The notes below the pieces were generated by a model. The model was not told the DNA's origin. It did no database searches and saw only the letters and a program-made list of their open reading frames with translations. The translations under genes and the position numbers were made by a program. From Bacteroidales bacterium (GTDB lineage: Bacteria > Bacteroidota > Bacteroidia > Bacteroidales > B18-G4), in NCBI GenBank assembly GCA_040775045.1, contig JAXGTH010000001.1, positions 1,117 to 65,116 on the forward strand: 64,000 nucleotides of DNA, read 5' to 3'. Shown piece after piece: positions 22,565 through 38,583 of this stretch; the stretch's first letter is position 1, and every line of letters starts with the position of its first letter.

Positions 22565-22767
22565 ATGCGTCATTTATTTAAAACAAATTTAAATAGATAA
22601 CCTGGATGTAGGATAATTGTTTGTAACTCAAATCCTAAGATGCCCTATGCCAGGAAAACGCTAAAGTTAGTGCCGAAACCCCGATGAATTTAATAGGTGG
22701 GCTGCGGTAATTTTTTTATCATTGTGTTATAAATTAACGGAACCGTAACAATATTAAAATCAAAAAC

Positions 22768-23631: not shown

Positions 23632-23657
23632 GCATGGTATAACGAAATCTTGTTCTT

Positions 23658-24482
23658 ATGTTCCAGATCGTCAGAAAACAGGAAATGGCCAGGGGAACGA
23701 TCATACGTTTCGACCTGAGTGCCCCGAAGATCGCCAAAAAGGTCAAAGCCGGGCAATTTATTATCCTGAGGGTGAACGAAACCGGTGAGCGTATTCCCCT
23801 TACTGTTGCGGATAAGGACGAATTTGCCGGCATCATTACCATCATCTTCCAGGTGGTCGGTAAGACTACGGCCTTGATGCGCTCGCTTAACGAGGGCGAC
23901 CTGATCAGGGACGTGGTAGGCCCCCTCGGGAAACCGGCTCATGTCGAAAAGGTGGGAACCGTGGTGATGGTGGGCGGCGGGACAGGTGTAGCCATCCTCC
24001 ACCACGTGGCCAAAGCCTTTAAGGAAGCCGGCAATTTCGTGATCAGCATCGTCGGTGCCCGCGACAGGGAAATGCTTATCCTGGAGAATGAGATGAAGCA
24101 GATCAGCGATGAACTGGTGGTCACGACCGACGACGGCAGCTATGGTGAAAGGGGATTCGTTACGGATCCGCTGAAAAAGTACCTCGACGAACGCTACGAC
24201 ATCAAGCTTGTGTATGCCATCGGGCCCATCATAATGATGCAGAATGTGGTGAAACTGACAAAAAAGTACAAGATGCCCACCATGGTCAGCCTGAACCCCA
24301 TCATGATCGACGGTACGGGAATGTGTGGCGGCTGCAGGGTTAAAGTCGGCGACAAGGCCCAGTTCTGTTGCGTCGATGGCCCCGATTTCAATGGCTTCGA
24401 AGTTGATTTCGAAGAATTGATCAACAGGAATTCACTTTATCTGAAAGAAGAGAAAGACTCACTGCTTTTCTCGATCAGGTAA
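23658..24482 (+). CDS. nfnA: NfnA/SudB-type subunit (FAD/NAD(P)-binding, PyrK-like, 2Fe-2S)
   Basis: 'RIPLTVAD', 'VMVGGGTGVA' and the C-terminal 'GMCGGCRV...FCCVDGP' cluster motif. Confidence 0.85.
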   Translation: MFQIVRKQEMARGTIIRFDLSAPKIAKKVKAGQFIILRVNETGERIPLTVADKDEFAGIITIIFQVVGKTTALMRSLNEGDLIRDVVGPLGKPAHVEKVGTVVMVGGGTGVAILHHVAKAFKEAGNFVISIVGARDREMLILENEMKQISDELVVTTDDGSYGERGFVTDPLKKYLDERYDIKLVYAIGPIIMMQNVVKLTKKYKMPTMVSLNPIMIDGTGMCGGCRVKVGDKAQFCCVDGPDFNGFEVDFEELINRNSLYLKEEKDSLLFSIR

Positions 24483-24500
24483 TATCATAAAGCATTTGCC

Positions 24501-26330
24501 ATGTTAGACCAGGATGTTAAATACCTAAAATTTAAGACCTATCTTAATACTTACTGTCCGCATTGCCACGAGAGTTTCAATGTTGAAAAAAAGGACCGTA
24601 AGCAGATCAATTTTAAAGCGGTATATAAAAACGAAGACATCGACCTGGTCCTCAGTCCCTATCTCGACGTTTTTGAGGTGGAGGCCTCCACTGAGATTAT
24701 CCTGGGTGATACTGTCGATGATATCAAATGCCCGCATTGTGGCAAAAGTTTGATCCATAAGGATATGCCATGTGGAGAATGTGGTTCTCCGGTTGCCGAG
24801 GTGATCGTGTCGGCAGCTTCACGGCTCATCCCGTTTTTCCTCTGTTCCAAATATGGTTGTGAATGGCATGGGCTGAGCAAACGCGACGAGCGGCATATCA
24901 AGCTGAAGATCCCGAGGCAGGAGATGCCTGAGCAGGATCAGACCCTTCGCGTGCACAACTGGCAGGAAGTGCCATACGGTTATACCTCCGAACTGGCCCT
25001 GCTGGAGGCGGGCCGGTGCCTGCAGTGTAAAAAGCCTATGTGTGTTGAGGGTTGCCCGGTAAATGTCGACATCCCTTCGTTCATTGCACTCGTGGCCGAA
25101 GAGAAATTCAATGATGCGGCCAAGAAGATCAAGGAAAGGAATGTTTTTCCCGCCATCTGCGGCCGGGTCTGCCCCCAGGAGAGCCAGTGCGAATCGAAAT
25201 GCGTGCTGGGCCATAAGGACCAGCCTGTGGCTATCGGAAGGCTTGAACGTTTTGTTGCCGATTATGAACGTAAGATGGACCTGGTAAATGTTCCGACCAT
25301 CACAGAGAATACAGGCCAAAAGATCGCAGTGGTGGGTTCGGGCCCGGGAGGTCTCACAGTGGCTGCCGACATGCGGCAACTGGGTTACAGCGTTACGGTT
25401 TATGAGGCCCTTCATGAAACGGGAGGCGTGCTTACCTATGGCATCCCCGAGTTCAGGCTGCCCAAATCCATCGTGCAGTTCGAGATCGAGTACCTGAAGC
25501 AAATGGGTGTTCGCTTCGAGCTCAACCACGTGATCGGCAATATCCTCACCGTTGATGAATTGCTCGAACATTTCGATGCCGTCTTTGTAGGTGTAGGAGC
25601 AGGATTTCCCTTGTTCATGGGACTTGAGGGCGAAAGCCTGGGTAGCGTCTTTTCAGCCAATGAATATCTCACCCGGATGAACCTGATGAAGGCCTACCGC
25701 TTCCCTGAATACGACACTCCCATGCCTAAAGGGCACAAGGTGGTGGTGGTCGGTGGCGGCAATGTGGCCATGGACTGCGCACGTACCGCTGCACGATCGG
25801 GGGCCGATGAAGTGACCATCGTGTACCGCCGCTCACGGCATGAACTTCCCGCCAGGGCAGAGGAGGTACACCATGCTGAAGAGGAAGGGATCAGATTCAA
25901 ACTGCTGACCAACCCTGTCAGGTACATCGGTACCGACAATAACAAGGTAAAGGCGGTTGAATGTATCAGGATGGAACTGGGCGAGCCGGACGCCTCAGGG
26001 CGGAGACGCCCTATCCCCATACAGGATTCGAACTTTACGATTGAATGCGACATGGCCATCGTGGCTATCGGCAATGGCCCCAATCCCATCATCTTCAACT
26101 CAACCCCCGATATGGAACTCAACAAATGGGGCTATATCAAAACAGATCCCGAAAGCAATGAAACTACAAAGGCTTTCGTCTATGCGGGCGGCGATATCGT
26201 TACAGGTTCGGCTACGGTGATCCAGGCCATGGGTGCCGGAAGGATAGCTGCAAATGCCATGCATGAGCGACTGACTGCCATACGTGAAAAAAAGAAAAAA
26301 CCTGCCCCGAAGAAGAAGACCGTTAAATAG
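24501..26330 (+). CDS. nfnB: NfnB/SudA/GltD-type subunit with an N-terminal zinc-ribbon module fusion and a Lys-rich tail
   Basis: Residues 1 to ~140 carry CPHC..CPHC..CGEC..CSKYGC. The GltD core follows: 'CLQCKKPMCVEGCPVNVDIPSFI', 'ICGRVCPQE..CE..C', 'VAVVGSGPGGL', 'VVVVGGGNVAMDCART'. The tail reads 'REKKKKPAPKKKTVK'. Confidence 0.85.
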   Translation: MLDQDVKYLKFKTYLNTYCPHCHESFNVEKKDRKQINFKAVYKNEDIDLVLSPYLDVFEVEASTEIILGDTVDDIKCPHCGKSLIHKDMPCGECGSPVAEVIVSAASRLIPFFLCSKYGCEWHGLSKRDERHIKLKIPRQEMPEQDQTLRVHNWQEVPYGYTSELALLEAGRCLQCKKPMCVEGCPVNVDIPSFIALVAEEKFNDAAKKIKERNVFPAICGRVCPQESQCESKCVLGHKDQPVAIGRLERFVADYERKMDLVNVPTITENTGQKIAVVGSGPGGLTVAADMRQLGYSVTVYEALHETGGVLTYGIPEFRLPKSIVQFEIEYLKQMGVRFELNHVIGNILTVDELLEHFDAVFVGVGAGFPLFMGLEGESLGSVFSANEYLTRMNLMKAYRFPEYDTPMPKGHKVVVVGGGNVAMDCARTAARSGADEVTIVYRRSRHELPARAEEVHHAEEEGIRFKLLTNPVRYIGTDNNKVKAVECIRMELGEPDASGRRRPIPIQDSNFTIECDMAIVAIGNGPNPIIFNSTPDMELNKWGYIKTDPESNETTKAFVYAGGDIVTGSATVIQAMGAGRIAANAMHERLTAIREKKKKPAPKKKTVK

Positions 26331-26478
26331 CAGCCAGGCTTTCAACCAACCTGTAGCAGAGCCAGGTGAGCTCCGGCAATTCTTGTTTGTCGATGTTCAA
26401 GGGTAAATCGCATGGGCGCCTGACCCCCTTCCTGAACATTTTGCCCTTACAACTTGTTTCCTGAAAACAGCTTCAGGC

Positions 26479-27036
26479 ATGAAAATACACCGGGCCATAG
26501 GTATTTTACTTCTCCTGGCGGGAATGGCGTTCGTCATTTCATGCTCCAGTAACGACGACCCTGTCTATACCGAAAAGAAACCCACCGCCCTTGAGGTGAT
26601 CAATGCGCAGGGGGTGAGTGTTCCGGTGTATGATTTTGAGGGCTTCAGCCCCATGCTGGATTATTACAACGATACCCTCTATGTGTTTAACTTCTGGGCT
26701 ACCTGGTGCCAGCCCTGCGTGAAGGAAATGCCTTACTTCAACATGGCAGACTCGGCCTATGCCGGTATGCCGGTACGCATCGTGCTGGTCAGCCTCGATT
26801 TTACCGAAAATGTTGAGGATGTGCTGATCCCCTTCATCCTGGAAAAAGAGCTGCGGCCTGAGGTGATCGTGCTTGATGACCCCGATGCCAACAGCTGGAT
26901 ACCCGAGATCGATCCCTCCTGGGAAGGAGCCATACCGGCAACGCTGTTTTTCAAGATGAAAAAGCGCAAGTTCATGAACCAGGCCTTCACCTATGAGGAA
27001 CTTTCAAATGAAATTGACGAACTATTAAAACCTTGA
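26479..27036 (+). CDS. Lipoprotein, TlpA/ResA-like thiol:disulfide oxidoreductase
   Basis: Lipobox 'FVISCSS' and thioredoxin motif 'FWATWCQPC'. Confidence 0.75.
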   Translation: MKIHRAIGILLLLAGMAFVISCSSNDDPVYTEKKPTALEVINAQGVSVPVYDFEGFSPMLDYYNDTLYVFNFWATWCQPCVKEMPYFNMADSAYAGMPVRIVLVSLDFTENVEDVLIPFILEKELRPEVIVLDDPDANSWIPEIDPSWEGAIPATLFFKMKKRKFMNQAFTYEELSNEIDELLKP

Positions 27037-27040
27037 TAAT

Positions 27041-27646
27041 ATGAAAACTACAGTAATATTTTTCCTTTCCATGATCATCACCTCCTCCATGGCCTTTGCC
27101 GGCGGGTATGAGGTGGGCGACAAGGCCGGCGACTTCACCCTCAAAAATGTCGACGGCAAAATGGTTTCACTGACCGATTATCCCGAGGCCAAAGGTTTCA
27201 TCGTGATCTTTACCTGTAACCACTGTCCTTATTCAAAGCTTTATGAGGACCGCATCATCGCCCTCGACGCTAATTACAGGGACAAGGGGTTCCCGGTCAT
27301 TGCCATCAACCCGAACGACCCGGCCGTACAGCCCGAGGACAGCTACCCGCTGATGCAGGTGAGGGCAAGGGAAAAGGGTTTCACCTTCCCGTATCTTTTT
27401 GATGAGACCCAGGATGTAGCCAGGGCGTACGGGGCCACCCGGACACCGCACGTTTTTATCCTCTCCATGGATGAAGGTGACCTGATCGTAAAATACATCG
27501 GGGCCATCGACAACAACAGCAAGAGTGCTGCCGAAGCCAGCGAGAAATATGTTGAGGATGCCCTGAACGCCCTCCTCAGCGGCAACGATCCCGCAGTGAA
27601 TTATACCCGGGCTGTCGGATGCACGATAAAGTGGAAAGCGGACTGA
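27041..27646 (+). CDS. Exported thioredoxin-fold (redoxin/AhpC-TSA-like) protein
   Basis: A signal peptide is followed by 'IVIFTCNHCPYS' (CxxC). Confidence 0.75.
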   Translation: MKTTVIFFLSMIITSSMAFAGGYEVGDKAGDFTLKNVDGKMVSLTDYPEAKGFIVIFTCNHCPYSKLYEDRIIALDANYRDKGFPVIAINPNDPAVQPEDSYPLMQVRAREKGFTFPYLFDETQDVARAYGATRTPHVFILSMDEGDLIVKYIGAIDNNSKSAAEASEKYVEDALNALLSGNDPAVNYTRAVGCTIKWKAD

Positions 27647-27652
27647 CCTGCC

Positions 27653-27682
27653 GACCTCACAGGTCGCCCGACCTGTGAGGTC
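27653..27682 (+). terminator. Perfect 14-bp-stem hairpin after the thioredoxin genes
   Basis: GACCTCACAGGTCG-CC-CGACCTGTGAGGTC lies 7 nt after the stop codon. There is no T-tract. Each arm is itself a small palindrome. Confidence 0.5.
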
Positions 27683-27860
27683 AGGTCGAAGCCATTTGAC
27701 ATATATCTGACAATATTTTCAATTCCCCTGCCTTCTGTTTTGCAGACCAAGTTTTATATCAATTCATTATCTTCATTATCAGTCACATATATTCCTTATT
27801 CGGGGCAATTTAGACCATATATAAATTATGGGGTTTAAAGGGCTGGCATGAAACATTTTA

Positions 27861-27868
27861 TAAATTTG
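27861..27868 (+). promoter_or_regulatory. Candidate -7 box TAAATTTG for the nuoE-like operon
   Basis: It matches TAnnTTTG and lies 25 nt upstream of ATG 27893. Confidence 0.45.
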
Positions 27869-27892
27869 TCAGCGCCTTAAAACCTTTATAAA

Positions 27893-28411
27893 ATGCGGAT
27901 TGAAAGAATAGATGTGAAGCGGGAAACCGACGAGCAGGCTGCGGTCGATACCGGGTTGCTCAACCCCCTGATCGATAAGTATAAAAACCAGAAAGGAAAT
28001 CTCATTCCCCTGCTCCAGGGGGCGCAGGATATCTACGGTTATATCCCGCGCGAAGCTTTTGAAAAACTTTCGGCCGAAACCGGGATACCCCTCAGCGAGA
28101 TGTACGGGGTAGCCACCTTTTATGCGCAGTTCAGGCTGAAACCTGTTGGAAAGCATATCATAAAGGTTTGCCACGGCACAGCCTGCCATGTCCAGAATGC
28201 CAAATCGATCACAACTTCCCTGAAGGAGGCCCTCAAAGTGGACGACGGCGGAACCACGGAAGACGGGCTCTTCACCCTCGAGTCGGTAGCATGCCTGGGT
28301 TGCTGCTCCCTGGCACCGGTCATGATGATCGGCAACGAAACCTACGGCAAGCTTACAGGTGCCCAGGCTGTGAAGATCGTAAAGAACATCAGGATCAGTG
28401 AAAACAATTGA
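27893..28411 (+). CDS. NuoE/HydC/HndA-like thioredoxin-like [2Fe-2S] subunit
   Basis: 'LIPLLQGAQD', 'KVCHGTACH' and 'VACLGCCSLAPVMM'. Confidence 0.9.
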   Translation: MRIERIDVKRETDEQAAVDTGLLNPLIDKYKNQKGNLIPLLQGAQDIYGYIPREAFEKLSAETGIPLSEMYGVATFYAQFRLKPVGKHIIKVCHGTACHVQNAKSITTSLKEALKVDDGGTTEDGLFTLESVACLGCCSLAPVMMIGNETYGKLTGAQAVKIVKNIRISENN

Positions 28412-28437
28412 TTTGACAACACTTTTGAAACAATAAT

Positions 28438-30213
28438 ATGGAAACAAAAGTAATCGTTGGTCTCGGAAGTTGCGGCATCGCTGCCGGAGCGGGAAAAGTG
28501 TACGACAAGATAGCGGCCATCAAAAAAGCGGAGAACCTCACCTTCGAATTGAAAAAGACCTCGTGTATCGGTATGTGTTACCGGGAGCCGCTGGTCGAGA
28601 TCATCGACGATTCGGGAAGGTACCTTTACGGCGATATCGACGAAGAGCGCATCATTGAGGTGATCGATAAGCATGTCGGGCAGCAGAATCCCGTGAAGGA
28701 ATTCGTGGTGCAGTCGGACCTCTTCGAGACCGTCGACAACGAATATACCAACGACCAGGTGAAGATCGCCCTCCGTAACTGCGGGTATATCGATCCGGAG
28801 AGTATAGAGGAATACGAGGCCAGGGACGGATACCGTGCCATCCGCAAGATCGCGGGACATGGCATGTCGAGGCTCGATGTGATCCAGGAAGTCATCGCTT
28901 CGGGCCTGCGCGGCCGAGGGGGCGGGGGCTTCCCGACAGGGTTGAAATGGAAATTTGCGAACAACAACAAAGCCGATGAAAAATATATCATCTGTAATGC
29001 CGACGAGGGCGATCCCGGTGCTTTCATGGACCGTTCCGTGCTGGAGGGCGATCCCCACTCGGTGCTCGAAGGGATGATCATCGGGGCATACGCCATCGAG
29101 GCTACCGGCGGGGTGATCTATTGCCGTGCCGAGTACCCGCTGGCCATCAAACGCCTTCGCATTGCCATCGGGCAGGCCCGCGAAAAGGGCTACCTGGGGA
29201 AGAACATCCTCGGGATCGAGGGCTTCAACTTCGACATCTATATCAAGGAGGGTGCCGGGGCATTTGTGTGCGGGGAGGAAACCGCACTGATCGCCTCGGT
29301 AGAGGGCCAGCGCGGCATGCCACGCAAGCGTCCGCCCTTCCCGGCTGCTTCAGGATTGTGGAAGAAGCCCACCAACATCAATAACGTGGAAACCTTTGCC
29401 AACATTCCCTGGATCATCCAGCACGGGGCTTCCGAATATGCCAGGTACGGTACGGAGAAGAGCAAGGGCACCAAGGTATTTGCCCTGGCCGGCAAGATAA
29501 AGCGTTCAGGGCTGGTGGAAGTGCCCATGGGCATGAGCATCAGGGATGTGATCTTCAAGCTTGGCGGAGGGATTCAGGATGACAAGGAATTCAAGGCCGT
29601 GCAGATGGGCGGACCCTCGGGGGGCTGCATCCCGGCACACCTGGCCGACACCATCGTCGATTATGACTCGGTGAATGCCACCGGCGCCATCATGGGTTCC
29701 GGCGGGATGGTCGTGATGGACGAAACTACCTGTATGATCGACGTGGCCAAATTCTTCCTCGACTTCACGCAGAAGGAATCCTGCGGGAAATGTACCTTCT
29801 GCCGCATAGGCACCAAACGTATGCTGGAGATCCTTACAAGGATCACTGAAGGGAAAGGTGAAGAGGGCGACATCGAAAGGCTGGAGGAACTGGCTTACCA
29901 GATCAAGGACAACTCGCTTTGCGGCCTTGGGCAGACAGCTCCCAACCCGGTGCTCACCACCATAAAATACTTCAGGGATGAGTATGAGGCCCATATCCGG
30001 GATAAAAAATGCCCGGCCCACGTCTGCACCAACCTGCTCACCTATACCGTCGATGCCGAAAAGTGCACGGGCTGTACCGTATGTGCCAAAAATTGCCCGG
30101 TAGAGGCCATCAGCGGCGAGCGTAAGGAGGTCCACTTCATCGACCAGGAAAAATGCATCAAGTGCGGTGTGTGTTACACCAAATGCAAGTTCGACGCCAT
30201 AATCTTATCATAA
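28438..30213 (+). CDS. NuoF/HydB/HndC-like NADH-binding FMN/FeS subunit (N-terminal 2Fe-2S domain, C-terminal 2x[4Fe-4S])
   Basis: 'GRGGGGFPTGLKWKF' (FMN site), 'ESCGKCTFCR', 'CTGCTVCAKNCP' and 'CIKCGVCYTKC'. Confidence 0.9.
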   Translation: METKVIVGLGSCGIAAGAGKVYDKIAAIKKAENLTFELKKTSCIGMCYREPLVEIIDDSGRYLYGDIDEERIIEVIDKHVGQQNPVKEFVVQSDLFETVDNEYTNDQVKIALRNCGYIDPESIEEYEARDGYRAIRKIAGHGMSRLDVIQEVIASGLRGRGGGGFPTGLKWKFANNNKADEKYIICNADEGDPGAFMDRSVLEGDPHSVLEGMIIGAYAIEATGGVIYCRAEYPLAIKRLRIAIGQAREKGYLGKNILGIEGFNFDIYIKEGAGAFVCGEETALIASVEGQRGMPRKRPPFPAASGLWKKPTNINNVETFANIPWIIQHGASEYARYGTEKSKGTKVFALAGKIKRSGLVEVPMGMSIRDVIFKLGGGIQDDKEFKAVQMGGPSGGCIPAHLADTIVDYDSVNATGAIMGSGGMVVMDETTCMIDVAKFFLDFTQKESCGKCTFCRIGTKRMLEILTRITEGKGEEGDIERLEELAYQIKDNSLCGLGQTAPNPVLTTIKYFRDEYEAHIRDKKCPAHVCTNLLTYTVDAEKCTGCTVCAKNCPVEAISGERKEVHFIDQEKCIKCGVCYTKCKFDAIILS

Positions 30214-30236
30214 ACGAAAATCAAAGGACCAGCATA

Positions 30237-33200
30237 ATGAGTGAAAAGGTAAATGTTATACTGAACGGAAAGATCGTTCCCGGTATCAAGGGGGAAACCA
30301 TCCTCCAACTGGCCAAACGAAACGGGATCGAAATACCTACCCTTTGCAACGACCCCCGGCTTGAACCCTACACCTCGTGTTATGTTTGTGTGGTGGAGGT
30401 GGAAGGTCTCAGGGGCCTCCAGCCTTCATGCTCCACGAAGATATCGGAGGGGATGCGGATCGAAACGCATAACGAAAAGATCGCCGGAGCCAGGAAAACC
30501 GCCCTCGAACTGATCCTGAGCAATCATTATGCCGACTGTATCGGGCCATGCAAGCAAACGTGTCCGGCAGGTGTTGATGTCCAGGGGTATATCTCGCACA
30601 TCGAAAAGGGACAATACCACGATGCCGTGGCACTCATCAAGGAAACGAATCCCCTGCCCGCCATTTGCGGCCGTGTATGTGTGCGCCCGTGCGAGGTGGC
30701 ATGCCGCCGCAACCTGCTTGATGAAACTTCTCCTGTCGGGATCGACTACCTGAAACGCTTCGCGTCGGATTACGACCTGGAATCGGAAAATAAATGGAGA
30801 CCTCAGGTCAAGCCTGAAACTGGCAAAAAGGTTGCCATCATCGGTGCCGGCCCGGGAGGCCTCTCTGCCGCCTTCTTCCTGCGGAAGGAAGGCCACGATA
30901 TCGACATCTTCGAAGCCAGCCCCAAAGCGGGCGGATGGCTGAGGTACGGCATCCCTGAATATCGCCTGCCCAACGATATCCTGCAGAAAGAGGTTGACAA
31001 CATCACGGAAATGGGTGTACGCATCCATTATAAGAAACGCCTGGGTGATAACCTTAAATATGCTGACCTGCAAAAGAAATACGATGCCGTGGTACTTGCC
31101 ATAGGTTCGCAGAAAGGGACCATGATCGGGGTGGAAGGTGATGATGCCGAGCATGTCTTTTCAGGGATCGACTTCCTCAAGGAAATGGAGATGACCGGGA
31201 AACGATACGACTTCACTGGCAAAAGAGTTGCCGTGGTGGGCGGTGGGAATACCGCCATGGACTGCTGCCGTACTTCGATGCGTTGCGGTGCCGAAAAGGT
31301 ATTTGTCATCTACCGGCGTACCGAAAATGAGATGCCTGCCAACCCCATCGAAATCCATGAGTCGAAACTCGAAGGAGTGGAATACATGCTCCTCACCAAT
31401 CCGGTGAAGATCAACAAATCAAAGGACGGCAAGGTAAGGTCGGTCACCTGCCTGAAAATGGAACTGGGCGAACCTGATGCTTCAGGGAGGAGAAGGCCCG
31501 TGCCTATCCAGGGTTCGGAATTCGACCTGGAGGTTGATTTTGTGCTGGCCGCCATCGGGCAAAAGACGGATGTTGATTTCACCGACGACATGAACAAGGC
31601 CGTGAAGAAGGGTGAACTCAAGCTGAATCGCTGGGGCGATATCGATGCCGATCCGAAAACCTTGCAAACCGGTGTCGAGAACGTATTTGCCGCCGGGGAT
31701 AGCGTAACAGGCCCTGCCACACTGATCCAGGCCATCGGGCAGGCCAGGATCGCAGCCCACAGCTGCGACCTCTATCTTCGTGGTGAGGAGGTCAGTCCCT
31801 TCCCTTATGAATTCTTCAGCAGGCGCGACAACTTCAAGACACAGGTTAAGGAAGATTATACCGGGAAATACAGCAAGCAGGAGCGGGAAGAAATGCCCAC
31901 CCTCGACCCAAAGAAAAGAAAGAATTTCAAGGAGGTGGAGCTGGGATATGAAAGTGAGGAGGTGGCTAGACATGAAGCGCTGCGCTGCATGGAATGCGGA
32001 TGTACGGAGCTGTATACCTGCGACCTGAAAAAATATGCCACCGAATACCAGGCCCGCCAGGAAGGAGTGAGGGGCGAATATAAGGAATACGGGGTTGATT
32101 TCCGGCATCCTTTTGTCGAGATCGACAACAACAAATGCGTACTGTGTGCCCGCTGCGTCAGGATATGCCGCGATGTGGTCGGGGCCAATGCGCTTGGCCT
32201 GGTCAACAGGGGCTTCGACACCTTTGTTGCCCCCAGCATGGGCAACACATTGCAGGATACCATGTGTGAAAGCTGTGGCATGTGTATCAGCACCTGTCCG
32301 ACCGGAGCGATAACCGAGAACGTTCCATTCAAACCCGGCCCGGTAAGGCTCGAAAAAGTACAGGGCATCTGCAACTTCTGTTCCATCGGGTGTGAACTCG
32401 ACTATGAACACAAAAGCGGTTTCGTGATGCGTGTCGAAGGTCGCGACGGCCGTGTGAATGCCAACGGCAACCTTTGCAAGTACGGCAAGTTTGGTTATAA
32501 AAACCTGAACGACAAGTCGCGCCTGACAAAACCCATGATGAAGATCAACGGACGGTTCGAGGAGATCGGTTTCGATGAGGCATTCAGCATCATGGCTGAG
32601 AAAATTAAGTCCGTCGCACCCGACGACAATGCCTTCTTTGCCGGTGCACGGCTGAGCAATGAGGAGCTGTACCTGATCCAGAAGCTGGCCCGGGCCGGTG
32701 CCGGGACCAATAATGTAACATCTTTCCATTACCTGAACAGGGGGATGGGTTATGCGGGCAATTCAAGGGCGAACGTCCCCTTTACACAGTTAAAGGACGC
32801 CAGCAGGATATACCTGATCGGGGCGGAATTGAACCGCGATAATCCCGTCCTGGGCTTCATGGTGAACAATGCGAAGGTGATGCATCATGTCCCCGTTGAG
32901 CTCGTTACTGTTCATGACCCGAGCAGCATGGAGCACAAGGCCGGCAAGACGCTGAAAGTTAAGTCATATTACCATTTCATCAAGGCAGTGAACTACTACC
33001 TCGTGGCCAACAATTTCCATAACGGGCTCTTCATCGGCGATCTTTGTGAAGGTTTTGCAGCATACAGGGAAGACCTGCTGAAAGAAAATTTCGTCGATCT
33101 CATCGAAAAGTCAGGGGTGCAGTTCATGGACAGTGTTATCGAGTTTGCCAAGGCATACAACAATGAGCTGAATGCCGTGATCATCTTTTCCGAGAAAGAA

Positions 33201-33935
33201 CTGTGTTCAAATGCCTGCAGCGAGCTGTTTAATCTTGCCATGATCACCGGAAAGCTTGGGAAAACGGCCAACGGGCTGGTGAGCATCAAGGAAAAGAACA
33301 ATGCTCAGGGTATCTTCGATATGGGCATTTGCCCTTTGCTGGGAGTAGGCGGCATTGATATCCTCGACAAGAAACTCCAGGCGGGCATGAAAAAACTCTG
33401 GAAGGTGAAATCACTGCCTTCGGATGTTAATGCCAGCCAGTACGAGAGGCTTGAAAAGGGTAAGCTGAAGAACCTGTTCATCTTTGGTGAAGACCCGCTG
33501 GGGTGTACCAACGACAAGGTCAAGGTGGCCGGCTGGCTTACGGTAGCCGATTTTGTGGTGGTAATGGACTATTTCATGACCGGAACCGCGGCCCAGGCCG
33601 ACCTGGTGCTACCGGCAAGCTTCCCCTTTGAGTCGGGTGGTACCTTCACCAACACACAAAAGGTGATTCAGCACTTTGAGGCCGGTTTCGAGCCGGAAAA
33701 CGGGATGACTACACTGGAACAGCTGGCCATGCTGATGAAACACCTCGACATTCAGCAGGAAAGCACTCCGGATTCCGTGATGGCAGAGATCACAAAACTG
33801 CTTCCCGGGACAGATATCGACGGGAAGTACGCCTTTGCGACCACCAGGGAAACGAACAACTGCCATATGTTCGATCACGGCTGCGATCATATCGTGAAGT
33901 ATTTTGATGATGAATTCAACAACGCCTTTAAATAA
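30237..33935 (+). CDS. 1232-aa fusion subunit: NuoG-type N-terminal [2Fe-2S], inserted GltD/NfnB-like FAD/NAD(P)H module, [4Fe-4S] region, and a truncated molybdopterin-oxidoreductase-like domain without catalytic Cys/Sec
   Basis: The start is set at ATG 30237 ('MSEKVNVILNGK') after the nuoF-like stop. Motifs in order: 'LCNDP..SCYVCVVEV..SC'; 'CIGPCKQTCPAGVDVQGYI', 'ICGRVCVRPCEVAC', 'VAIIGAGPGGL', 'VAVVGGGNTAMDCCRT'; 'CVLCARCVRIC', 'CESCGMCISTCP', 'CNFCSIGC'. The FdhF 'CCARVUHGPSV' position reads 'TSFHYLNRGMGY'. Confidence 0.85.
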   Translation: MSEKVNVILNGKIVPGIKGETILQLAKRNGIEIPTLCNDPRLEPYTSCYVCVVEVEGLRGLQPSCSTKISEGMRIETHNEKIAGARKTALELILSNHYADCIGPCKQTCPAGVDVQGYISHIEKGQYHDAVALIKETNPLPAICGRVCVRPCEVACRRNLLDETSPVGIDYLKRFASDYDLESENKWRPQVKPETGKKVAIIGAGPGGLSAAFFLRKEGHDIDIFEASPKAGGWLRYGIPEYRLPNDILQKEVDNITEMGVRIHYKKRLGDNLKYADLQKKYDAVVLAIGSQKGTMIGVEGDDAEHVFSGIDFLKEMEMTGKRYDFTGKRVAVVGGGNTAMDCCRTSMRCGAEKVFVIYRRTENEMPANPIEIHESKLEGVEYMLLTNPVKINKSKDGKVRSVTCLKMELGEPDASGRRRPVPIQGSEFDLEVDFVLAAIGQKTDVDFTDDMNKAVKKGELKLNRWGDIDADPKTLQTGVENVFAAGDSVTGPATLIQAIGQARIAAHSCDLYLRGEEVSPFPYEFFSRRDNFKTQVKEDYTGKYSKQEREEMPTLDPKKRKNFKEVELGYESEEVARHEALRCMECGCTELYTCDLKKYATEYQARQEGVRGEYKEYGVDFRHPFVEIDNNKCVLCARCVRICRDVVGANALGLVNRGFDTFVAPSMGNTLQDTMCESCGMCISTCPTGAITENVPFKPGPVRLEKVQGICNFCSIGCELDYEHKSGFVMRVEGRDGRVNANGNLCKYGKFGYKNLNDKSRLTKPMMKINGRFEEIGFDEAFSIMAEKIKSVAPDDNAFFAGARLSNEELYLIQKLARAGAGTNNVTSFHYLNRGMGYAGNSRANVPFTQLKDASRIYLIGAELNRDNPVLGFMVNNAKVMHHVPVELVTVHDPSSMEHKAGKTLKVKSYYHFIKAVNYYLVANNFHNGLFIGDLCEGFAAYREDLLKENFVDLIEKSGVQFMDSVIEFAKAYNNELNAVIIFSEKELCSNACSELFNLAMITGKLGKTANGLVSIKEKNNAQGIFDMGICPLLGVGGIDILDKKLQAGMKKLWKVKSLPSDVNASQYERLEKGKLKNLFIFGEDPLGCTNDKVKVAGWLTVADFVVVMDYFMTGTAAQADLVLPASFPFESGGTFTNTQKVIQHFEAGFEPENGMTTLEQLAMLMKHLDIQQESTPDSVMAEITKLLPGTDIDGKYAFATTRETNNCHMFDHGCDHIVKYFDDEFNNAFK

Positions 33936-33945
33936 ATAACAGGAA

Positions 33946-34401
33946 ATGAAAGATCTGACAACATTTGATACCATACTCGATTTTGCCATTGAGGAAGAAC
34001 AGAAAGCGGTGGATTTCTATTCAGAACTTGCCGGACAGGCATCTTCCGACGATATGCGTCTTGTATTCGAGGAATTTGCACAAGAGGAGGTCAGGCATAA
34101 GACGAAACTCATGGAGGTGAAGGAAACAGGCATGACCAACATGCCGCCCGAGAATGTTGCCGACCTTAAGATCGCCGATTATACAGTCAATGTAAAGCCA
34201 ACGCCCGGCATGTCATACCAGGAGGCACTGGTCGTGGCCATGAACAAGGAAAAGGCTGCTTTCAGGCTCTACACTTCATTATCGCAAAGGGCTGATGATC
34301 CGGTGCTTAAAGAGCTTTTTGCCGCTCTTGCCCAGGAGGAATCAAAGCATAAACTGAGGTTCGAGGTGGAATATGATGAGTATGTGCTGAGGGAGAATTA
34401 A
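33946..34401 (+). CDS. Rubrerythrin/ferritin-like di-iron four-helix protein
   Basis: It has two E...ExxH pairs: 'EEEQKA...QEEVRHK' and 'NKEKAA...QEESKHK'. Confidence 0.7.
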   Translation: MKDLTTFDTILDFAIEEEQKAVDFYSELAGQASSDDMRLVFEEFAQEEVRHKTKLMEVKETGMTNMPPENVADLKIADYTVNVKPTPGMSYQEALVVAMNKEKAAFRLYTSLSQRADDPVLKELFAALAQEESKHKLRFEVEYDEYVLREN

Positions 34402-34411
34402 TAAGCTTGCC

Positions 34412-34450
34412 AATTAGGCCGCCAACCTTTTGAAGGTTGACAACCTAATT
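34412..34450 (+). terminator. Two-tier hairpin after the rubrerythrin-like gene
   Basis: AATTAGG-ccgc-CAACCTT-ttg-AAGGTTG-acaa-CCTAATT. Confidence 0.5.
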
Positions 34451-34452
34451 CG

Positions 34453-34460
34453 TACCTTTG
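34453..34460 (+). promoter_or_regulatory. Candidate -7 box TACCTTTG for the second REC/ATP-grasp gene
   Basis: It matches TAnnTTTG and lies 27 nt upstream of ATG 34487. Confidence 0.4.
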
Positions 34461-34486
34461 TCCCGGATAATTCACAATCAGATTAA

Positions 34487-37462
34487 ATGGCCGGGCCCAG
34501 CACCAACCTATCGAAGCATTTTTTTCACGACACTTCATTCGATACGCTGATGAAAAAGCGTATCTACCAAGTCCTGCTCATTTCCAGCGCCTATGATGCA
34601 TTCATCCTCGAAGAGGATGGCCGTATCGATGAGCAGATCTTCAACGAATACGTTTCGCTCAACCTTCGGTACCCGCCTCAATTCATCCAGGTGACCAAGG
34701 AAGAAAAAGCCTTCAGGGAGCTGGAGGAAGAGAATATCGATCTGGTCATCACCATGCTTAGTGCCGAAGACGAGGATACTTTCGGCATCGCCAAGAAGAT
34801 CAAAAAGAAGTATCCCAACATCCCCATTGTGGTGCTTACCCCTTTCTCGCGCAAGGTTTCGGTGAAACTCGACCAGGAAGACCTCGGCGCCATCGATTAC
34901 GTCTTCAGCTGGTTGGGCAATGCCGATCTCCTGCTGGCCATCATCAAGCTGATCGAGGACAAGATGAACGTGGAGCATGATGTGAATGAGGTGGGCGTGC
35001 AAACCATCATCCTGGTTGAGGATTCGGTGAGGTTCTATTCAAGCTACCTGCCGCACATTTACAAGATCATCTTCAAGCAATCGCAGGAGTTCATGACCGA
35101 GGGACTGAACGAGCACCAGCAGATGATGAGGATGCGCGGACGCCCAAAGATACTGCTGGCCAGGACCTATGAGGAAGCGCTTGGTTTTTATGAGAAATAC
35201 AAGAACAACCTGCTCGGGATCATTTCAGATCTCGCCTACTTGCGTAAGGGGGTCCACGACAGGGAAGCCGGTTTCCGTCTTGTAAAAAAGGTCAAGGCAG
35301 AAGACAACCTGATGCCGATCCTGCTGCAATCGTCGGAAGCCGGTGCGGCAGAGGTTGCCAAGGAACTCAGGGTGGGTTTCATCAACAAGCAGTCCAAGAC
35401 CATCTCCATCGAACTTAAAAATTTTATATCGGCATATTTCGCTTTCGGCGATTTTGTTTTTATCGATCCCGATACCATGGAGGAGATCGATCGCGCTCCG
35501 GACCTCAAGACCCTGCAGCGGAAGATCCACAAGATCCCCGACAAATCGCTGGTTTACCATCTTTCGCGGAACCATATCTCGAAATGGCTGAGGGCACGTG
35601 CGCTCTTCCCCCTTGCCGAGCGTTTCAGGGATGTGACCCTCGACGATTTCGATGACCTCAGCGAAGTGAGGAAGTATCTCTTCGATTCCATTGGGAATTA
35701 CCGTATGACCAAGGCCCGGGGCGTGATCGCGGAGTTCCGGCGCGACAGTTTCGATGAATATCTTTCCCTGTCGCGCATTGGGGAAGGATCTCTTGGAGGA
35801 AAGGCCCGCGGACTGGCATTCCTCGATTCCATGATCAAACGAAACCATTTTTACGACCGGTGGGAAGGGGTGAGGATATCAATCCCGAAAACCGTAGTGC
35901 TGGGTACCGACATCTTCGACCAGTTCATGGAAGAGAATGACCTTTACAAGGTGGCCATGTCGAACCTTACCGATGGCGAAATTCTGCAGAAATTCGTTGA
36001 GGCACGCCTGCCGTTCAGGATCAAGGAAGATCTGTATACCCTGATCTCCTTCCTCAAGAACCCACTGGCGGTAAGGTCGTCGAGCCTTCTCGAAGATTCT
36101 TACTACCAGCCCTTTGCAGGGATTTACAACACCTATATGATCCCGAACCTCGAGTCGGACGAGAGAAGAATGATGGAAATGCTTACCGAAGCCATCAAAA
36201 GCGTGTATGCATCCGCATACTATAAGGACAGCAAAGCCTATATGGCCGCCACCTCCAATGTGATCGACGAGGAGAAGATGGCCATCGTGCTGCAGCAGGT
36301 GGTGGGCAGGAGATATGCCAACAGGTTCTACCCTGTGATCTCCGGTGTGGCGCGGTCGATCAACTTCTATCCCATCGAGCCCGAAAGGCCTGAAGACGGT
36401 ATCGTGAATATCGCCCTCGGCCTGGGGAAGTATATCGTGGATGGGGGCATGACCCTGCGGTTCAGTCCCAAATACCCCAAAAAGGTGCTCCAGACCAGTA
36501 CGCCAGAGCTGGCCCTTCGCGAGACCCAGCGCATCTTCTATGCCCTCGACCTGATGGCCGACAGTTTCAAGCCATGTATCGATGATGCTGTTAACCTGCT
36601 TAAGCTGAGAGTGTCAGAAGCAGAGAAGGATAAGTCGATCAGGTATGTCGCCTCCACCTATGACTACCAGAGCAAGATGATCCGTGATGGCACTGCCACC
36701 GAAGGGAAGCGGCTGATCACCTTTTCGGCTATTCTTAACCATGATGTCCTTCCACTGGCCGACATCCTGCGGGTGGTGCTCGAAACCGGGCAGAGGGAGA
36801 TGGGTAAACCCATCGAGATCGAGTTTGCTGTCGATGTGAACCCCGTGAAAGGGGAACCGCATATCTTCCACCTGCTCCAGATCAGGCCAATCGTCGACAG
36901 TGACGAGACCGTGGATGTTGATATTGAAGGGATTGATGCCCGGAATTCACTCATGGTCAGCAATTCGGCCCTTGGAAACGGCTATATCCGGGATATCCGC
37001 GATATCGTTTATATCAAGCCGGAAAGTTTCGATTCGGCGCGCACCCTCGAGATCGCTGAACTGATCGGACAGGTCAATGACCGTTTCCTGGCCGAAGGCA
37101 AAAACTATATCCTCGTAGGTCCTGGCCGCTGGGGCTCTGCTGACCCGCACCTCGGGATCCCCGTTAAATGGCCGCAGATATCCGCTGCCAGGCTGATCGT
37201 GGAATCCGGACTGGAAGACTATCATATCGATCCCAGCCAGGGGACCCACTTTTTCCAGAACCTGACCTCCTTCAGGGTGGGATACTTCACCATCAACCCC
37301 TTCTTCAACGAGGGAAGCTATGATATTGGTTTCCTGGAAGCCCGCGAAGCCATTTATGAAGATGACTTTGTCAGGCATGTCAGATTTGATGATCCATTGC
37401 TGATCGCCATCGACGGTAAGAAGAACAAAGGGATGGTAATGAAGCCGGGGACCACATCCTGA
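34487..37462 (+). CDS. 991-aa paralog of 19088-22564: degenerate receiver, receiver, PPDK_N-type ATP-grasp, conserved C-terminal domain (lacks the ~165-aa N-terminal region)
   Basis: 'IILVEDS', 'LLGIISDLAY', 'GSLGGKARGLAF', 'PLAVRSSSLLEDS..PFAGIYNTY', 'LVGPGRWGSADPHLGIPVKWPQIS' and 'GTHFFQN'. It is colinear with the first copy over its whole length. Confidence 0.8.
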   Translation: MAGPSTNLSKHFFHDTSFDTLMKKRIYQVLLISSAYDAFILEEDGRIDEQIFNEYVSLNLRYPPQFIQVTKEEKAFRELEEENIDLVITMLSAEDEDTFGIAKKIKKKYPNIPIVVLTPFSRKVSVKLDQEDLGAIDYVFSWLGNADLLLAIIKLIEDKMNVEHDVNEVGVQTIILVEDSVRFYSSYLPHIYKIIFKQSQEFMTEGLNEHQQMMRMRGRPKILLARTYEEALGFYEKYKNNLLGIISDLAYLRKGVHDREAGFRLVKKVKAEDNLMPILLQSSEAGAAEVAKELRVGFINKQSKTISIELKNFISAYFAFGDFVFIDPDTMEEIDRAPDLKTLQRKIHKIPDKSLVYHLSRNHISKWLRARALFPLAERFRDVTLDDFDDLSEVRKYLFDSIGNYRMTKARGVIAEFRRDSFDEYLSLSRIGEGSLGGKARGLAFLDSMIKRNHFYDRWEGVRISIPKTVVLGTDIFDQFMEENDLYKVAMSNLTDGEILQKFVEARLPFRIKEDLYTLISFLKNPLAVRSSSLLEDSYYQPFAGIYNTYMIPNLESDERRMMEMLTEAIKSVYASAYYKDSKAYMAATSNVIDEEKMAIVLQQVVGRRYANRFYPVISGVARSINFYPIEPERPEDGIVNIALGLGKYIVDGGMTLRFSPKYPKKVLQTSTPELALRETQRIFYALDLMADSFKPCIDDAVNLLKLRVSEAEKDKSIRYVASTYDYQSKMIRDGTATEGKRLITFSAILNHDVLPLADILRVVLETGQREMGKPIEIEFAVDVNPVKGEPHIFHLLQIRPIVDSDETVDVDIEGIDARNSLMVSNSALGNGYIRDIRDIVYIKPESFDSARTLEIAELIGQVNDRFLAEGKNYILVGPGRWGSADPHLGIPVKWPQISAARLIVESGLEDYHIDPSQGTHFFQNLTSFRVGYFTINPFFNEGSYDIGFLEAREAIYEDDFVRHVRFDDPLLIAIDGKKNKGMVMKPGTTS

Positions 37463-37464
37463 AC

Positions 37465-37498
37465 AACCCACCCCGGCCCTCCCTTCCTGAAGGGAGGG
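37465..37498. repeat. Left inverted repeat plus complete GC-rich hairpin
   Basis: AACCCACCCCGGCCCTCCCTTC lies at 37465-37486. The hairpin is CCCTCCCTTC-ct-GAAGGGAGGG at 37477-37498. Confidence 0.85.
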
Positions 37499-37504
37499 AG
37501 AATT

Positions 37505-37867
37505 TCATCTGAACTCTTCTTTAATTCTTACGAGTACTTTATCAATATCGGCCAATTCCTCATTTTTGATCCTGATAATTTTTAGTCCTTTAGATTTCAA
37601 TATCAGATCACGTTTCTCATCCCTTGATTTTTGTTTTCGATGAATCGGGCCATCCAGTTCAATGACCAGTTTTTCCTCTGCGCAGTAAAAATCAGGGATA
37701 TAAAAGAAGTGGTTATTTCTTTTGGATTCATATATAATTGGGTGCTGTCGAAGAAACTTTTTCCCGCATAATTTCCTTTTTCGTAAAAATGACCAAAGAA
37801 ATTTTTCGTGTATGGTTTGTCGGCTTCTTAGCCGCCGCGATGTATTAATTATTTCATGATATTTCAT
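37505..37867 (-). CDS. DUF559 (Vsr-like endonuclease fold) domain protein
   Basis: 'RQTIHEKFLWSFLRKRKL.GKKFLRQHPI...YIPDFYC...KLVIELDG..H' is the DUF559 pattern. Confidence 0.8.
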   Translation of the reverse strand: MKYHEIINTSRRLRSRQTIHEKFLWSFLRKRKLCGKKFLRQHPIIYESKRNNHFFYIPDFYCAEEKLVIELDGPIHRKQKSRDEKRDLILKSKGLKIIRIKNEELADIDKVLVRIKEEFR

Positions 37868-37885
37868 AGTGCTCTGTGAGGCCCT

Positions 37886-37901
37886 TTATTATATTAATAC
37901 C
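37886..37901 (-). promoter_or_regulatory. Shared 16-nt upstream motif GGTATTAATATAATAA (minus-strand reading)
   Basis: It is identical to 45381-45396 and lies 19 nt upstream of the DUF559 ATG. Confidence 0.4.
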
Positions 37902-37920
37902 ATTTTTTGTGAAATGTCCC

Positions 37921-37954
37921 CCCTCCCTTCTGGAAGGGAGGGCCGGGGTGGGTT
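37921..37954. repeat. Right inverted repeat plus complete GC-rich hairpin
   Basis: The hairpin is CCCTCCCTTC-tg-GAAGGGAGGG at 37921-37942. GAAGGGAGGGCCGGGGTGGGTT lies at 37933-37954. Confidence 0.85.
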
Positions 37955-38043
37955 GGTAATGCACCCGGCTGGCAATTCACCAAACATTCGACCAGGCACA
38001 ATATTTCCTCCGGAATCCTGTTATTTTTTAAATCATAACCGTC

Positions 38044-38583
38044 ATGAAAAATGCAAACCTGATTTTACTGGCGCTCAGCCTTGTCCTTGTCTTTACCATG
38101 TGCAACCAAAAAACTGAAGACAACCGGACCCTGATCACCAAAAAGATCCAGTACGACGTACCCATCGTCAATACCGATGCCTCCTACGACTGGTGGATCG
38201 GCAACATTGCCGGTGCAGACCGCGAGACCCTGCTGAACAATATCTTCGAGCGTGTGCTCTCGGGTGATGTGCAGGCTTACGACTACTTCAACGAACCCCT
38301 GTCGGTGAACCAGGTCAGGAGCCTGCTGGTCGACAGTATCCACCAGACCCTGGTCCGCCCGGTAGATCCGTATCCCGAATACGATACGCTGATCATCAGC
38401 GAGATCACCCCGGCAGATATCAGCATGATCCGGTTCCTCGAAGAATGGAAGTATGACGAAAAGACCCTGAAACTGGATAAGAAGATCTTTGCCATGAGCC
38501 CTGTGATGATGGTAACGATCAACGGTCAGAAGATCACGCGGCCATTGTTCTGGATATACACTGACGAGGCGATCCTGAAATAG
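38044..38583 (+). CDS. Lipoprotein, unknown function
   Basis: Signal/lipobox 'LSLVLVFTMCNQ'. No recognised domain. Confidence 0.6.
   Translation: MKNANLILLALSLVLVFTMCNQKTEDNRTLITKKIQYDVPIVNTDASYDWWIGNIAGADRETLLNNIFERVLSGDVQAYDYFNEPLSVNQVRSLLVDSIHQTLVRPVDPYPEYDTLIISEITPADISMIRFLEEWKYDEKTLKLDKKIFAMSPVMMVTINGQKITRPLFWIYTDEAILK

Follow-up and report, generated by a model that had tools for sequence, protein, structure and literature searches.

The stretch of DNA analysed here (hereafter the window) comprises 64,000 nucleotides (nt) of contig JAXGTH010000001.1 from a Bacteroidales bacterium (assembly GCA_040775045.1). It carries three codirectional genes that very probably encode an Nfn-type member of the BfuABC family, for which the names StnABC, Sporomusa-type Nfn and NfnABC are also in use. 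The genes are:

27893-28411, + strand: bfuC (= stnA / nfnC), 172 amino acids, NuoE/HydC-like, with thioredoxin-like [2Fe-2S] cluster C1
28438-30213, + strand: bfuB (= stnB / nfnB), 591 amino acids, NuoF/HydB-like flavin mononucleotide (FMN)/NAD(H) subunit
30237-33935, + strand: bfuA (= stnC / nfnA), 1232 amino acids, NADPH-oxidising giant subunit

Spacers are short, with 26 nt between bfuC and bfuB and 23 nt between bfuB and bfuA. The longest frame of bfuA opens at 30153, within bfuB, and the ATG at 30237 gives the 1232-residue product.

All three proteins find their best Protein Data Bank (PDB) matches in the three subunits of the same three solved complexes, NfnABC of Caldicellulosiruptor saccharolyticus (9BOV), StnABC of Sporomusa ovata (8OH5) and Nfn-Bfu of Thermococcus sibiricus (9N5U), and the locus is assigned to the Nfn type for this reason. 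BfuA matches 9bov_A (E = 1.3e-241, residues 6-1031 and 1072-1174), 8oh5_C (4.3e-231) and 9n5u_A (6.5e-197); BfuB matches 8oh5_B (5e-263), 9bov_B (1.3e-257) and 9n5u_B (2e-256); and BfuC matches 9bov_C (2e-55), 9n5u_C (6e-52) and 8oh5_A (1.5e-47). For BfuB, the Nfn-type chains score 877, 859 and 855 bits against at most 764 bits for the HydB chains of NiFe and FeFe hydrogenases, a PDB ranking that stands in for a tree as a proxy for membership of clade 53, the Nfn-associated BfuB clade whose phyla include the Bacteroidetes (Schut et al. 2022). Identities counted on the printed alignments are 66% to StnB and 64% to C. saccharolyticus NfnB for BfuB, and 54% to C. saccharolyticus NfnC for BfuC. 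BfuA is 48% identical to C. saccharolyticus NfnA over residues 6-703 and 29% over 703-897, the start of its formate dehydrogenase (FDH)-like domain.

What the locus offers directly is gene structure, domain order, homology and the conservation of ligands and motifs. The layout of the giant subunit is normal for the NfnABC/StnABC family, members of which have been solved by cryo-electron microscopy, and is no new architecture: the solved chains 8oh5_C (StnC, 1172 amino acids) and 9bov_A (NfnA, 1178 amino acids) are built in the same way. What is new is an uncharacterised member of this family from an uncultured Bacteroidales bacterium, and the locus belongs inside the family, as more than a mere relative. 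A preliminary description of this DNA had recognised a HydBC/NuoEF-type bifurcating module beside a giant subunit with a GltD-like part set into a NuoG/FdhA-like scaffold, and had named Sporomusa-type Nfn (Stn) among the closest known systems; the Pfam domain order and PDB matches of the three proteins bear out the first claim and their best PDB matches the second, and the motifs that it quoted are all present in BfuA at or near the residues given for them. It had also considered that the two parts of the giant subunit might be separate genes joined by a frameshift or assembly error. Such an artefact was rejected, since 118 of the 120 homologues listed have the full-length protein (1200-1260 amino acids), and both parts also stand together in the solved chains of StnC and NfnA.

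BfuA starts with a [2Fe-2S] domain, after which there follow an inserted GltD/NfnL-like module for flavin adenine dinucleotide (FAD) and NADPH, NuoG-type clusters and the FDH-like domain, and it aligns end to end with 9bov_A and 8oh5_C. StnC has been described in the same terms (Kumar et al. 2023, PMC10482914), with a hydrogenase-like [2Fe-2S] domain (1-101), a GltD-like NADPH/FAD module (102-565), clusters of the NuoG type and, at 683-1172, an FdhF-like part. Pfam places Fer2_4 at residues 3-79, a partial NADH-G_4Fe-4S_3 at 86-101, Fer4_20 at 103-183, Pyr_redox_2 at 197-503, Fer4_Nqo3 at 625-693, Molybdop_Fe4S4 at 707-758 and Molybdopterin at 762-1153. The parts of the protein are:

BfuA 1-101, 30237-30539, + strand: N-terminal [2Fe-2S] (C37, C48, C51, C65) and first half of the His-cluster motif, H97-x3-C101
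BfuA 102-583, 30540-31985, + strand: inserted GltD/NfnL-like FAD and NADPH module (Pfam Fer4_20, Pyr_redox_2)
BfuA 584-693, 31986-32315, + strand: C-x2-C-x-C-x5-C (C584, C587, C589, C595), then a ferredoxin-like 2x[4Fe-4S] domain
BfuA 707-1153, 32355-33695, + strand: degenerate MopB domains I-III, with [4Fe-4S] at C712, C715, C719 and C747

The GltD-like module seems to be placed precisely after the first and before the second Cys of the NuoG His-cluster motif (H97-x3-C101...C589-x5-C595), an insertion point that agrees with the partial NADH-G_4Fe-4S_3 match, and the 'RCxxC' start of the module itself (C584, C587) appears to be displaced to its C-terminal end. The C584-C595 motif closes the GltD and the His-cluster motifs alike. 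Further landmarks are CIGPCKQTCPAGVD at 101-114 and ICGRVCVRPCEVAC at 143-156, the Rossmann motifs GAGPGG (203-208) and GGGNTA (335-340), CVLCARCVRIC at 634-644 and CESCGMCISTCP at 677-688 in the ferredoxin-like part, and CNFCSIGC (712-719), TSFHYLNRGMGY (828-839) and DLVLPASFPFESGG (1122-1135) in the FDH-like domain.

The cluster-binding Cys are fully conserved across 119 BfuA homologues, in which C37/48/51/65, C101/105/109, C144/148/152/156, C584/587/589/595, C634/637/640/644, C677/680/683/687 and C712/715/719/747 are invariant, as is His97. These 27 invariant Cys, with His97, which is invariant too, and with Lys173, fit motifs for one [2Fe-2S] and six [4Fe-4S] clusters. The allotment of ligands to individual clusters is in part one that we infer from motif patterns, and H97 and C101 are placed provisionally with the His-ligated cluster on the model of the NuoG motif H-x3-C-x2-C-x5-C. 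The Cys of C584-C595 and of the ferredoxin-like domain (C634-C644 and C677-C687) are kept in the NfnA and StnC alignments. C109, C148, C152 and Lys173 align with C108, C147, C151 and K170 of C. saccharolyticus NfnA, the unusual set of three Cys and one Lys that ligates its A7 [4Fe-4S] cluster (PMC11829005), and C105 and C156 belong to cluster A6. R243 is the counterpart of StnC R239, and the YRR motif for NADPH is kept at 359-361. The alignments of the GltD-like module cover StnC, NfnA of C. saccharolyticus and of T. sibiricus, Thermotoga maritima NfnB and Pyrococcus furiosus NfnL.

BfuB has the Pfam domains Complex1_51K, SLBB and NADH_4Fe-4S, a partial 2Fe-2S_thioredx match (29-78) and two Fer4 motifs (Fer4 536-589). 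Its metal sites comprise B5 in the N-terminal thioredoxin-like domain (C12, C43, C47), the B1 [4Fe-4S] (C449, C452, C455, C495), the B2/Zn site (H519, C525) and the C-terminal 2x[4Fe-4S] B3/B4 (C543-C553 and C573-C583). An AFM motif, a Phe, a GGPSG loop, the B2-site His and extra metal domains are reported from Bfu enzymes and as missing from non-bifurcating homologues (PMC12018979, PMC9304861). In BfuB, AFM lies at 195-197 (within GAFMD, 194-198), GAGAFVCGEE at 272-281 and GGPSG at 391-395, so that AFM, the equivalent of Phe-281, the GGPSG loop and the Glu for NADH selectivity are all in place, together with the extra metal sites of the B5 domain, the B2 His/Cys, and B3 and B4. BfuC is a 2Fe-2S_thioredx protein (E = 9e-51) with candidate [2Fe-2S] ligands C93, C98, C134 and C137/138 (VCHGTACH, 92-99; VACLGCC, 132-138), and its 11-residue linker YAQFRLKPVGK (77-87), by which the C-terminal [2Fe-2S] domain would be flexibly attached, is of the same length as that of T. 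sibiricus (Y58-K68).

The FDH-like domain of BfuA is degenerate in a specific way. In a MAFFT alignment with Escherichia coli FdhH (from NC_000913), Sec140, the molybdenum (Mo) ligand, corresponds to Asn834 and His141 to Arg835, a deletion of six residues follows these two, and Arg333 is replaced by Lys. The codons concerned are:

Asn834-Arg835, 32736-32741, + strand: opposite Sec140 (Mo ligand) and His141 of FdhH

The Cys-type FDHs 8rqz_C and 7qv7_S, aligned by HMMER, give the same placement. When 119 full-length homologues are compared at position 834, 97 have Asn, nine Lys and five Gly, and Cys is outside these three commonest residues. BfuA stops at about residue 578 of the 715 of FdhH, so that domain IV is absent; Pfam gives no Molydop_binding (PF01568) match in BfuA, and after residue 1153 only a short helical tail of 79 residues follows. 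With each of the FDH catalytic residues replaced and no domain IV, the FDH-like domain is predicted to be a catalytically dead evolutionary remnant.

An AlphaFold2 (AF2) model of residues 575-1232, which rested on an alignment of 36 sequences, has a predicted local distance difference test (pLDDT) score above 90 over most of the MopB-like part and below 50 in the part with the iron-sulfur clusters. In a Foldseek search of the PDB with this model, the top matches are FDHs, 9bov_A and 8oh5_C, all with TM-scores of about 0.6; the comparison adds no more than 'MopB fold, no domain IV', as real FDHs are not separated from StnC and NfnA. The published enzymes share the defect: the pterin site of C. 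saccharolyticus NfnA is incomplete and empty, its A2-A4-A5 cluster branch being a dead-end remnant (Li et al. 2025, PMC11829005), and StnC shows no formate:methyl viologen activity (Kremp et al. 2020, PMC7483475), its FdhF-like domain being described as one that 'is catalytically inactive' (Kumar et al. 2023, PMC10482914). The preliminary description was right in holding an FDH unlikely, a view which a Cys or Sec in a complete MopB domain would have contradicted and which Asn834 and the absent domain IV support. It overstated the novelty in taking the degenerate MopB scaffold as special to the version in the window, as this is a published and structurally verified property of StnC and NfnA (PMC10482914, PMC11829005).

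Because the cofactor sites are all conserved, a mechanism for the complex can be taken from the solved homologues. The FAD of the GltD/NfnL-like module in BfuA, itself non-bifurcating, would accept a hydride from NADPH, and from there single electrons would pass via the Lys-ligated [4Fe-4S] A7 to A6, A3, A2 and A1 and on to the B1-FMN-C1 'flavobicluster' formed by BfuB and BfuC. In the high-potential branch NAD+ would be reduced at the FMN, and in the low-potential branch the mobile C1 domain would carry electrons to B3/B4 at the C terminus of BfuB and then to ferredoxin (Fd). The net reaction would be 2 NADPH + NAD+ + 2 Fd(ox) <-> 2 NADP+ + NADH + 2 Fd(red) + H+. The FDH-like domain would, as in the homologues, hold the dead-end A4-A5 branch and mediate tetramer assembly. 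The most likely direction in a fermentative anaerobe is the reverse one, in which NADH and reduced ferredoxin would be spent to form NADPH. Rnf, PFOR and hydrogenase genes are lacking among the genes of the window, and the physiological direction is thus not narrowed by them. A gene of the Glu/Leu/Phe/Val dehydrogenase family (17561-18916, - strand), 9 kb upstream and probably an NADP-type glutamate dehydrogenase, is a plausible consumer of NADPH; besides this gene, the remaining genes of the window concern purine synthesis, a glycosyltransferase and an ABC transporter.

Such proteins are widespread. More than 8000 BfuA homologues were scored, and the best 120 listed are Bacteroidales-type proteins with 66-88% identity. 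The closest genomic relatives are metagenome-assembled genomes of uncultured Bacteroidales, Lentimicrobiaceae and Marinilabiliales (61-88% identity), and of 34 related loci 28 share the gene order C-B-A, while no complete C-B-A set was seen in the remaining six. A literature search on Stn/NfnABC in Bacteroidetes returned one passing sentence (Schut 2022) and no study of a Bacteroidota enzyme.

A second NADH/NADPH/ferredoxin system within 12 kb, which the preliminary description had also proposed, is indeed present as a canonical NfnS/NfnL pair:

23658-24482, + strand: NfnS, 274 amino acids; 5jca_S (P. furiosus NfnI-S) 2.6e-92, 4ylf_A 1e-78
24501-26330, + strand: NfnL, 609 amino acids; 4ylf_B (T. 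maritima NfnB) 6.8e-169, 5jca_L 5.9e-148

The pair lies about 1.5 kb upstream of bfuC, with only a thioredoxin-like and a peroxiredoxin gene between. An NfnL orthologue is found upstream of bfuCBA in nine of the 21 related loci with enough flank (L001, L004, L009, L013, L016, L020, L024, L029 and L035). In acetogens, Stn and Nfn are 'almost mutually exclusive' (Kremp et al., PMC7483475), and Thermococcales typically hold either the Stn-type or the NfnSL-type system (Xiao et al.). The close pairing of NfnSL and Nfn-Bfu in the window is therefore mildly unexpected.

NfnL carries an N-terminal extension of 135 amino acids (24501-24905) that is Cys-rich, with four CxxC-type pairs, and is missing from the T. 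maritima and P. furiosus proteins. It shares 42% identity (E = 2e-36) with the C-terminal half of an adjacent 287-residue zinc-ribbon protein encoded at 22768-23631 (+ strand), which resembles two copies of the same module. In one related locus (L054) the gene order is bfuA, zinc-ribbon, nfnS, nfnL and rubrerythrin-like gene. The whole redox cluster is bracketed by two paralogues of 1158 (19088-22564, + strand) and 991 amino acids (34487-37462, + strand), 37% identical over 976 residues and each with a receiver-like region and a PPDK_N (phosphoenolpyruvate-utilising, ATP-grasp) domain, an arrangement also seen in L001, L008, L012 and L035.

Between the peroxiredoxin gene and bfuC lies a longer gap:

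27647-27892, + strand: intergenic region, 246 nt, upstream of bfuC, read by eye

A perfect hairpin of 13 base pairs (27653-27665 / 27670-27682) stands just past the peroxiredoxin stop codon, and TAAATTTG at 27861-27868, 25 nt upstream of the ATG of bfuC, is similar to TAnnTTTG, the -7 promoter element of Bacteroides. The gap might tentatively be taken as an operon boundary and promoter. A sigma-70 promoter and terminator scan of 22500-38200 returned counts equal to the shuffled expectation and is uninformative for a Bacteroidota genome, and for that reason the ends of the operon are drawn from gene spacing and a single hairpin noticed by eye.

At the other end of the unit, bfuA is directly followed by a further gene:

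33946-34401, + strand: rubrerythrin-like gene, 151 amino acids, probable fourth gene of the unit, 10 nt past the bfuA stop codon

Its product matches Pfam Rubrerythrin (E = 2e-15) and, weakly, TM1526 in the PDB. It is predicted to form a diiron four-helix bundle with the ligand motifs E17...E48xxH51 and E102...E132xxH135, and it has neither a rubredoxin domain nor any Cys. The gene is found immediately 3' of bfuA in 15 of 27 genome loci. Among metagenomic relatives of the rubrerythrin-like protein with at least 55% identity and enough upstream flank, the 3' end of bfuA lies 7-114 nt upstream in 27 of 30, and in two of the three exceptions bfuA is slightly further upstream, with zinc-ribbon and/or NfnSL genes between. 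The same linkage is seen in three of 17 relatives with 45-55% identity and in none of 15 below 45%. This pattern suggests that the rubrerythrin-like gene is a conserved fourth gene of the operon. In a literature search on rubrerythrin with Bfu enzymes, only Schut 2022 was found, and a rubrerythrin-like fourth gene of a bfuCBA operon is not described in the literature searched. A thioredoxin-like (185 amino acids) and an AhpC/TSA peroxiredoxin gene (201 amino acids), identified by Pfam, occupy 26479-27646 (+ strand) between the two Nfn systems and are kept in L001, L008 and L020, and a more distant relative has a gene for superoxide dismutase next to bfuC on its upstream side (L002, 6137-6754). 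Oxidative-stress genes thus recur around the operon.

Several points weigh against reading the locus simply as another bifurcating transhydrogenase of the Nfn type. The cofactor content, activity, direction and ferredoxin partner given above are those that we infer. Cys144 (in PAICGRVC; codon 30666-30668), invariant in the Bacteroidales clade and present also in NfnL and GltD, is missing from all three solved NfnA/StnC chains. At the position of the redox-tuning C114 of StnC, BfuA has Val115 (codon 30579-30581), although C114 is not strictly conserved (Kumar et al.; PMC10482914) and the active T. sibiricus enzyme also has Val; together, Cys144 and Val115 may be a sign that the first of the clusters behind the FAD is tuned differently. 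The MopB-like domain scores 179 and 172 bits against genuine FDHs, compared with 157 against StnC and 134 against NfnA, and keeps a segment of about 36 residues that is missing from both, so that it appears less degenerate than in the characterised enzymes. NfnSL and Nfn-Bfu would be redundant if both run one reaction, and the linkage with the rubrerythrin-like gene may point to a further electron sink or to another one. The segment, the bit scores and Cys144 are within-family variation, and none of them restores a catalytic residue of FDHs.

Of the alternative explanations, the one that survives best, though we still regard it as unlikely, is that the Nfn-Bfu core also or mainly feeds an oxidative-stress sink, in which the diiron protein would receive electrons, possibly via A4-A5, and the whole would act as an NAD(P)H- or ferredoxin-driven peroxide or oxygen reductase. 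The position of the rubrerythrin-like gene speaks for it, both in the window and in the 15 loci mentioned, and so does the contrast between close relatives (27 of 30 directly after bfuA) and those below 45% identity (0 of 15); judged by eye, the diiron ligand motifs are kept in the translated relatives. Peroxiredoxin and thioredoxin-like genes are adjacent, as is superoxide dismutase in L002, the neighbouring NfnSL pair could handle a plain transhydrogenase role, and the MopB-like domain is better preserved than that of StnC. Rubrerythrin-coupled Bfu enzymes have moreover been predicted (Schut 2022), and NADPH sulfur/oxygen oxidoreductase was the original assignment of Thermococcus litoralis NsoABC. 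Linkage of genes alone, however, proves no physical or electron-transfer link, and 12 of the 27 loci do without the rubrerythrin-like gene with no change to be seen in the length and ligands of BfuA. In L086 this gene follows NfnSL instead, which fits a looser link, through NADPH supply for stress defence, better than a docking subunit. Rub-Bfu itself is only predicted, and later work on the relatives of NsoABC established these as Nfn enzymes (PMC9304861, PMC12018979).

Perhaps, in a more daring version that we consider doubtful, many Bacteroidales have a four-gene unit in which the well-preserved though ligand-less FDH-like domain, with A4-A5, would serve as docking site and electron exit to the diiron protein and so couple NADPH, or NADH with ferredoxin, to the reduction of peroxide or oxygen. 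If true, this would explain the adjacent NfnSL and peroxiredoxin genes and give the remnant branch a function.

A much less probable alternative is a non-bifurcating NADPH-linked oxidoreductase, that is, an NADPH:ferredoxin or NADPH:NAD+ enzyme or an SfrAB-like NADPH:metal/ferredoxin reductase with a NuoEF-like diaphorase. The SfrB-like NCBIfam model PRK12814 is indeed matched over its whole length by the N-terminal 647 residues of BfuA (residues 4-647, E = 3.7e-199), and the characterised Stn also runs uncoupled side reactions (PMC7483475). Yet BfuB has all the features reported to separate bifurcating from non-bifurcating enzymes (PMC9304861, PMC12018979), NuoE/NuoF partners are absent from SfrAB, and the three nearest characterised enzymes all bifurcate. 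SfrAB itself does not fit, as its parts are fused in BfuA and encoded with BfuB and BfuC. An [FeFe] hydrogenase of the HydABC type was rejected for want of an Fe_hyd_lg_C/H-cluster domain in BfuA, of which only the N-terminal iron-sulfur part matches HydA, and a glutamate synthase small subunit was rejected as GltB is not nearby and NuoEF partners are present. The remaining alternative, a genuine NAD+/ferredoxin-linked (bifurcating) FDH as named by automated pipelines, has MopB domains I-III, strong FDH matches and the annotation of many homologues as 'formate dehydrogenase major subunit' (JGI) in its favour, but deserves hardly any credence and is effectively refuted by the sequence: the Mo ligand is replaced by Asn, with Cys not among the three commonest residues there in the 119 homologues, the catalytic His and Arg have become Arg and Lys, the active-site loop is six residues shorter, the pterin-capping domain IV is missing, and neither formate:methyl viologen activity in StnC (PMC7483475) nor pterin density in C. 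saccharolyticus NfnA (PMC11829005) was found.

With the locus read as an Nfn-type BfuABC, thousands of Bacteroidales proteins annotated as 'formate dehydrogenase major subunit' or 'FAD-dependent oxidoreductase' would be better named as the NADPH-binding subunit of an NfnABC/Stn-type bifurcating transhydrogenase. Metabolic models of such anaerobes from digesters, sediments and guts should then gain a link from ferredoxin and NADH to NADPH and lose an FDH. The presence of Stn-type and NfnSL-type systems side by side raises the question whether the two are truly redundant. The linkage with the rubrerythrin-like gene could be a lead on the function of the dead-end cluster branch or, alternatively, on a connection between NADPH supply and oxidative stress defence.

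Compared with known systems, the locus is set apart most clearly from those that share only parts of it. With NfnSL/NfnAB (T. maritima 4YLF, P. furiosus 5JCA) the overall reaction would be shared, and NfnL is a homologue of the GltD-like part of BfuA, but the mechanism of NfnSL is unrelated, with bifurcation at one FAD, whereas the FAD of BfuA would be non-bifurcating and the A7 ligand is Lys instead of Glu. In Geobacter sulfurreducens SfrAB, the GltD-like SfrB and the FdhA-like SfrA resemble the giant subunit split in two; this pair is without a NuoE/NuoF-type bifurcating module, and its parts are fused in BfuA. NAD+-dependent and bifurcating FDHs (FdsABG, 6TG9; Fdh-Bfu) and E. coli FdhH share the NuoE/NuoF/NuoG-like framework and MopB domains I-III, while BfuA is without the Cys/Sec ligand, the catalytic His and Arg and domain IV, and has the GltD module inserted. 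The predicted Rub-Bfu (Schut 2022, BfuB clade 57) has a rubrerythrin-family gene directly after the Bfu genes, as in the window. Rub-Bfu lacks BfuA, whereas the rubrerythrin-like gene of the window follows a complete Nfn-type BfuA; it is the sole published parallel that was found, and itself a prediction.

The three solved complexes come much closer. S. ovata StnABC (8OH5/8OH9; Kremp 2020, Kumar 2023) has the same subunits, gene order and domain order of the giant subunit, and shares the cluster-binding Cys, the A7 Lys, the R239 equivalent and a BfuB that is 66% identical. It differs in having C114 where the window has Val115 and in being without the invariant Cys144, and the FDH-like domain of the window keeps the segment of about 36 residues and by score comes nearer to genuine FDHs. 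The locus is from a Bacteroidales bacterium and not from an acetogen, and the window has NfnSL, of which S. ovata has none, as well as the rubrerythrin-like gene. C. saccharolyticus NfnABC (9BOV/9BP5; Li 2025) is the best match of the giant subunit and shares the A7 ligands and the incomplete pterin site, although the FDH-like part is only about 29% identical. The metal of the B5 site is Zn in C. saccharolyticus and [2Fe-2S] in S. ovata, and that of BfuB in the window is not predictable from sequence. T. sibiricus Nfn-BfuABC (9N5U/9N5V) and T. litoralis NsoABC belong to the same family as the locus. The archaeal BfuA has 963 amino acids, about 270 fewer, and is without the Cys for one side-branch cluster, all of which are kept in the window, and the T. 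sibiricus enzyme is monomeric and not tetrameric. Around A6/A7 it is nevertheless T. sibiricus that gives the best match, with the CIGPC...DV motif, the Val at the position of StnC C114 and the Lys ligand shared.

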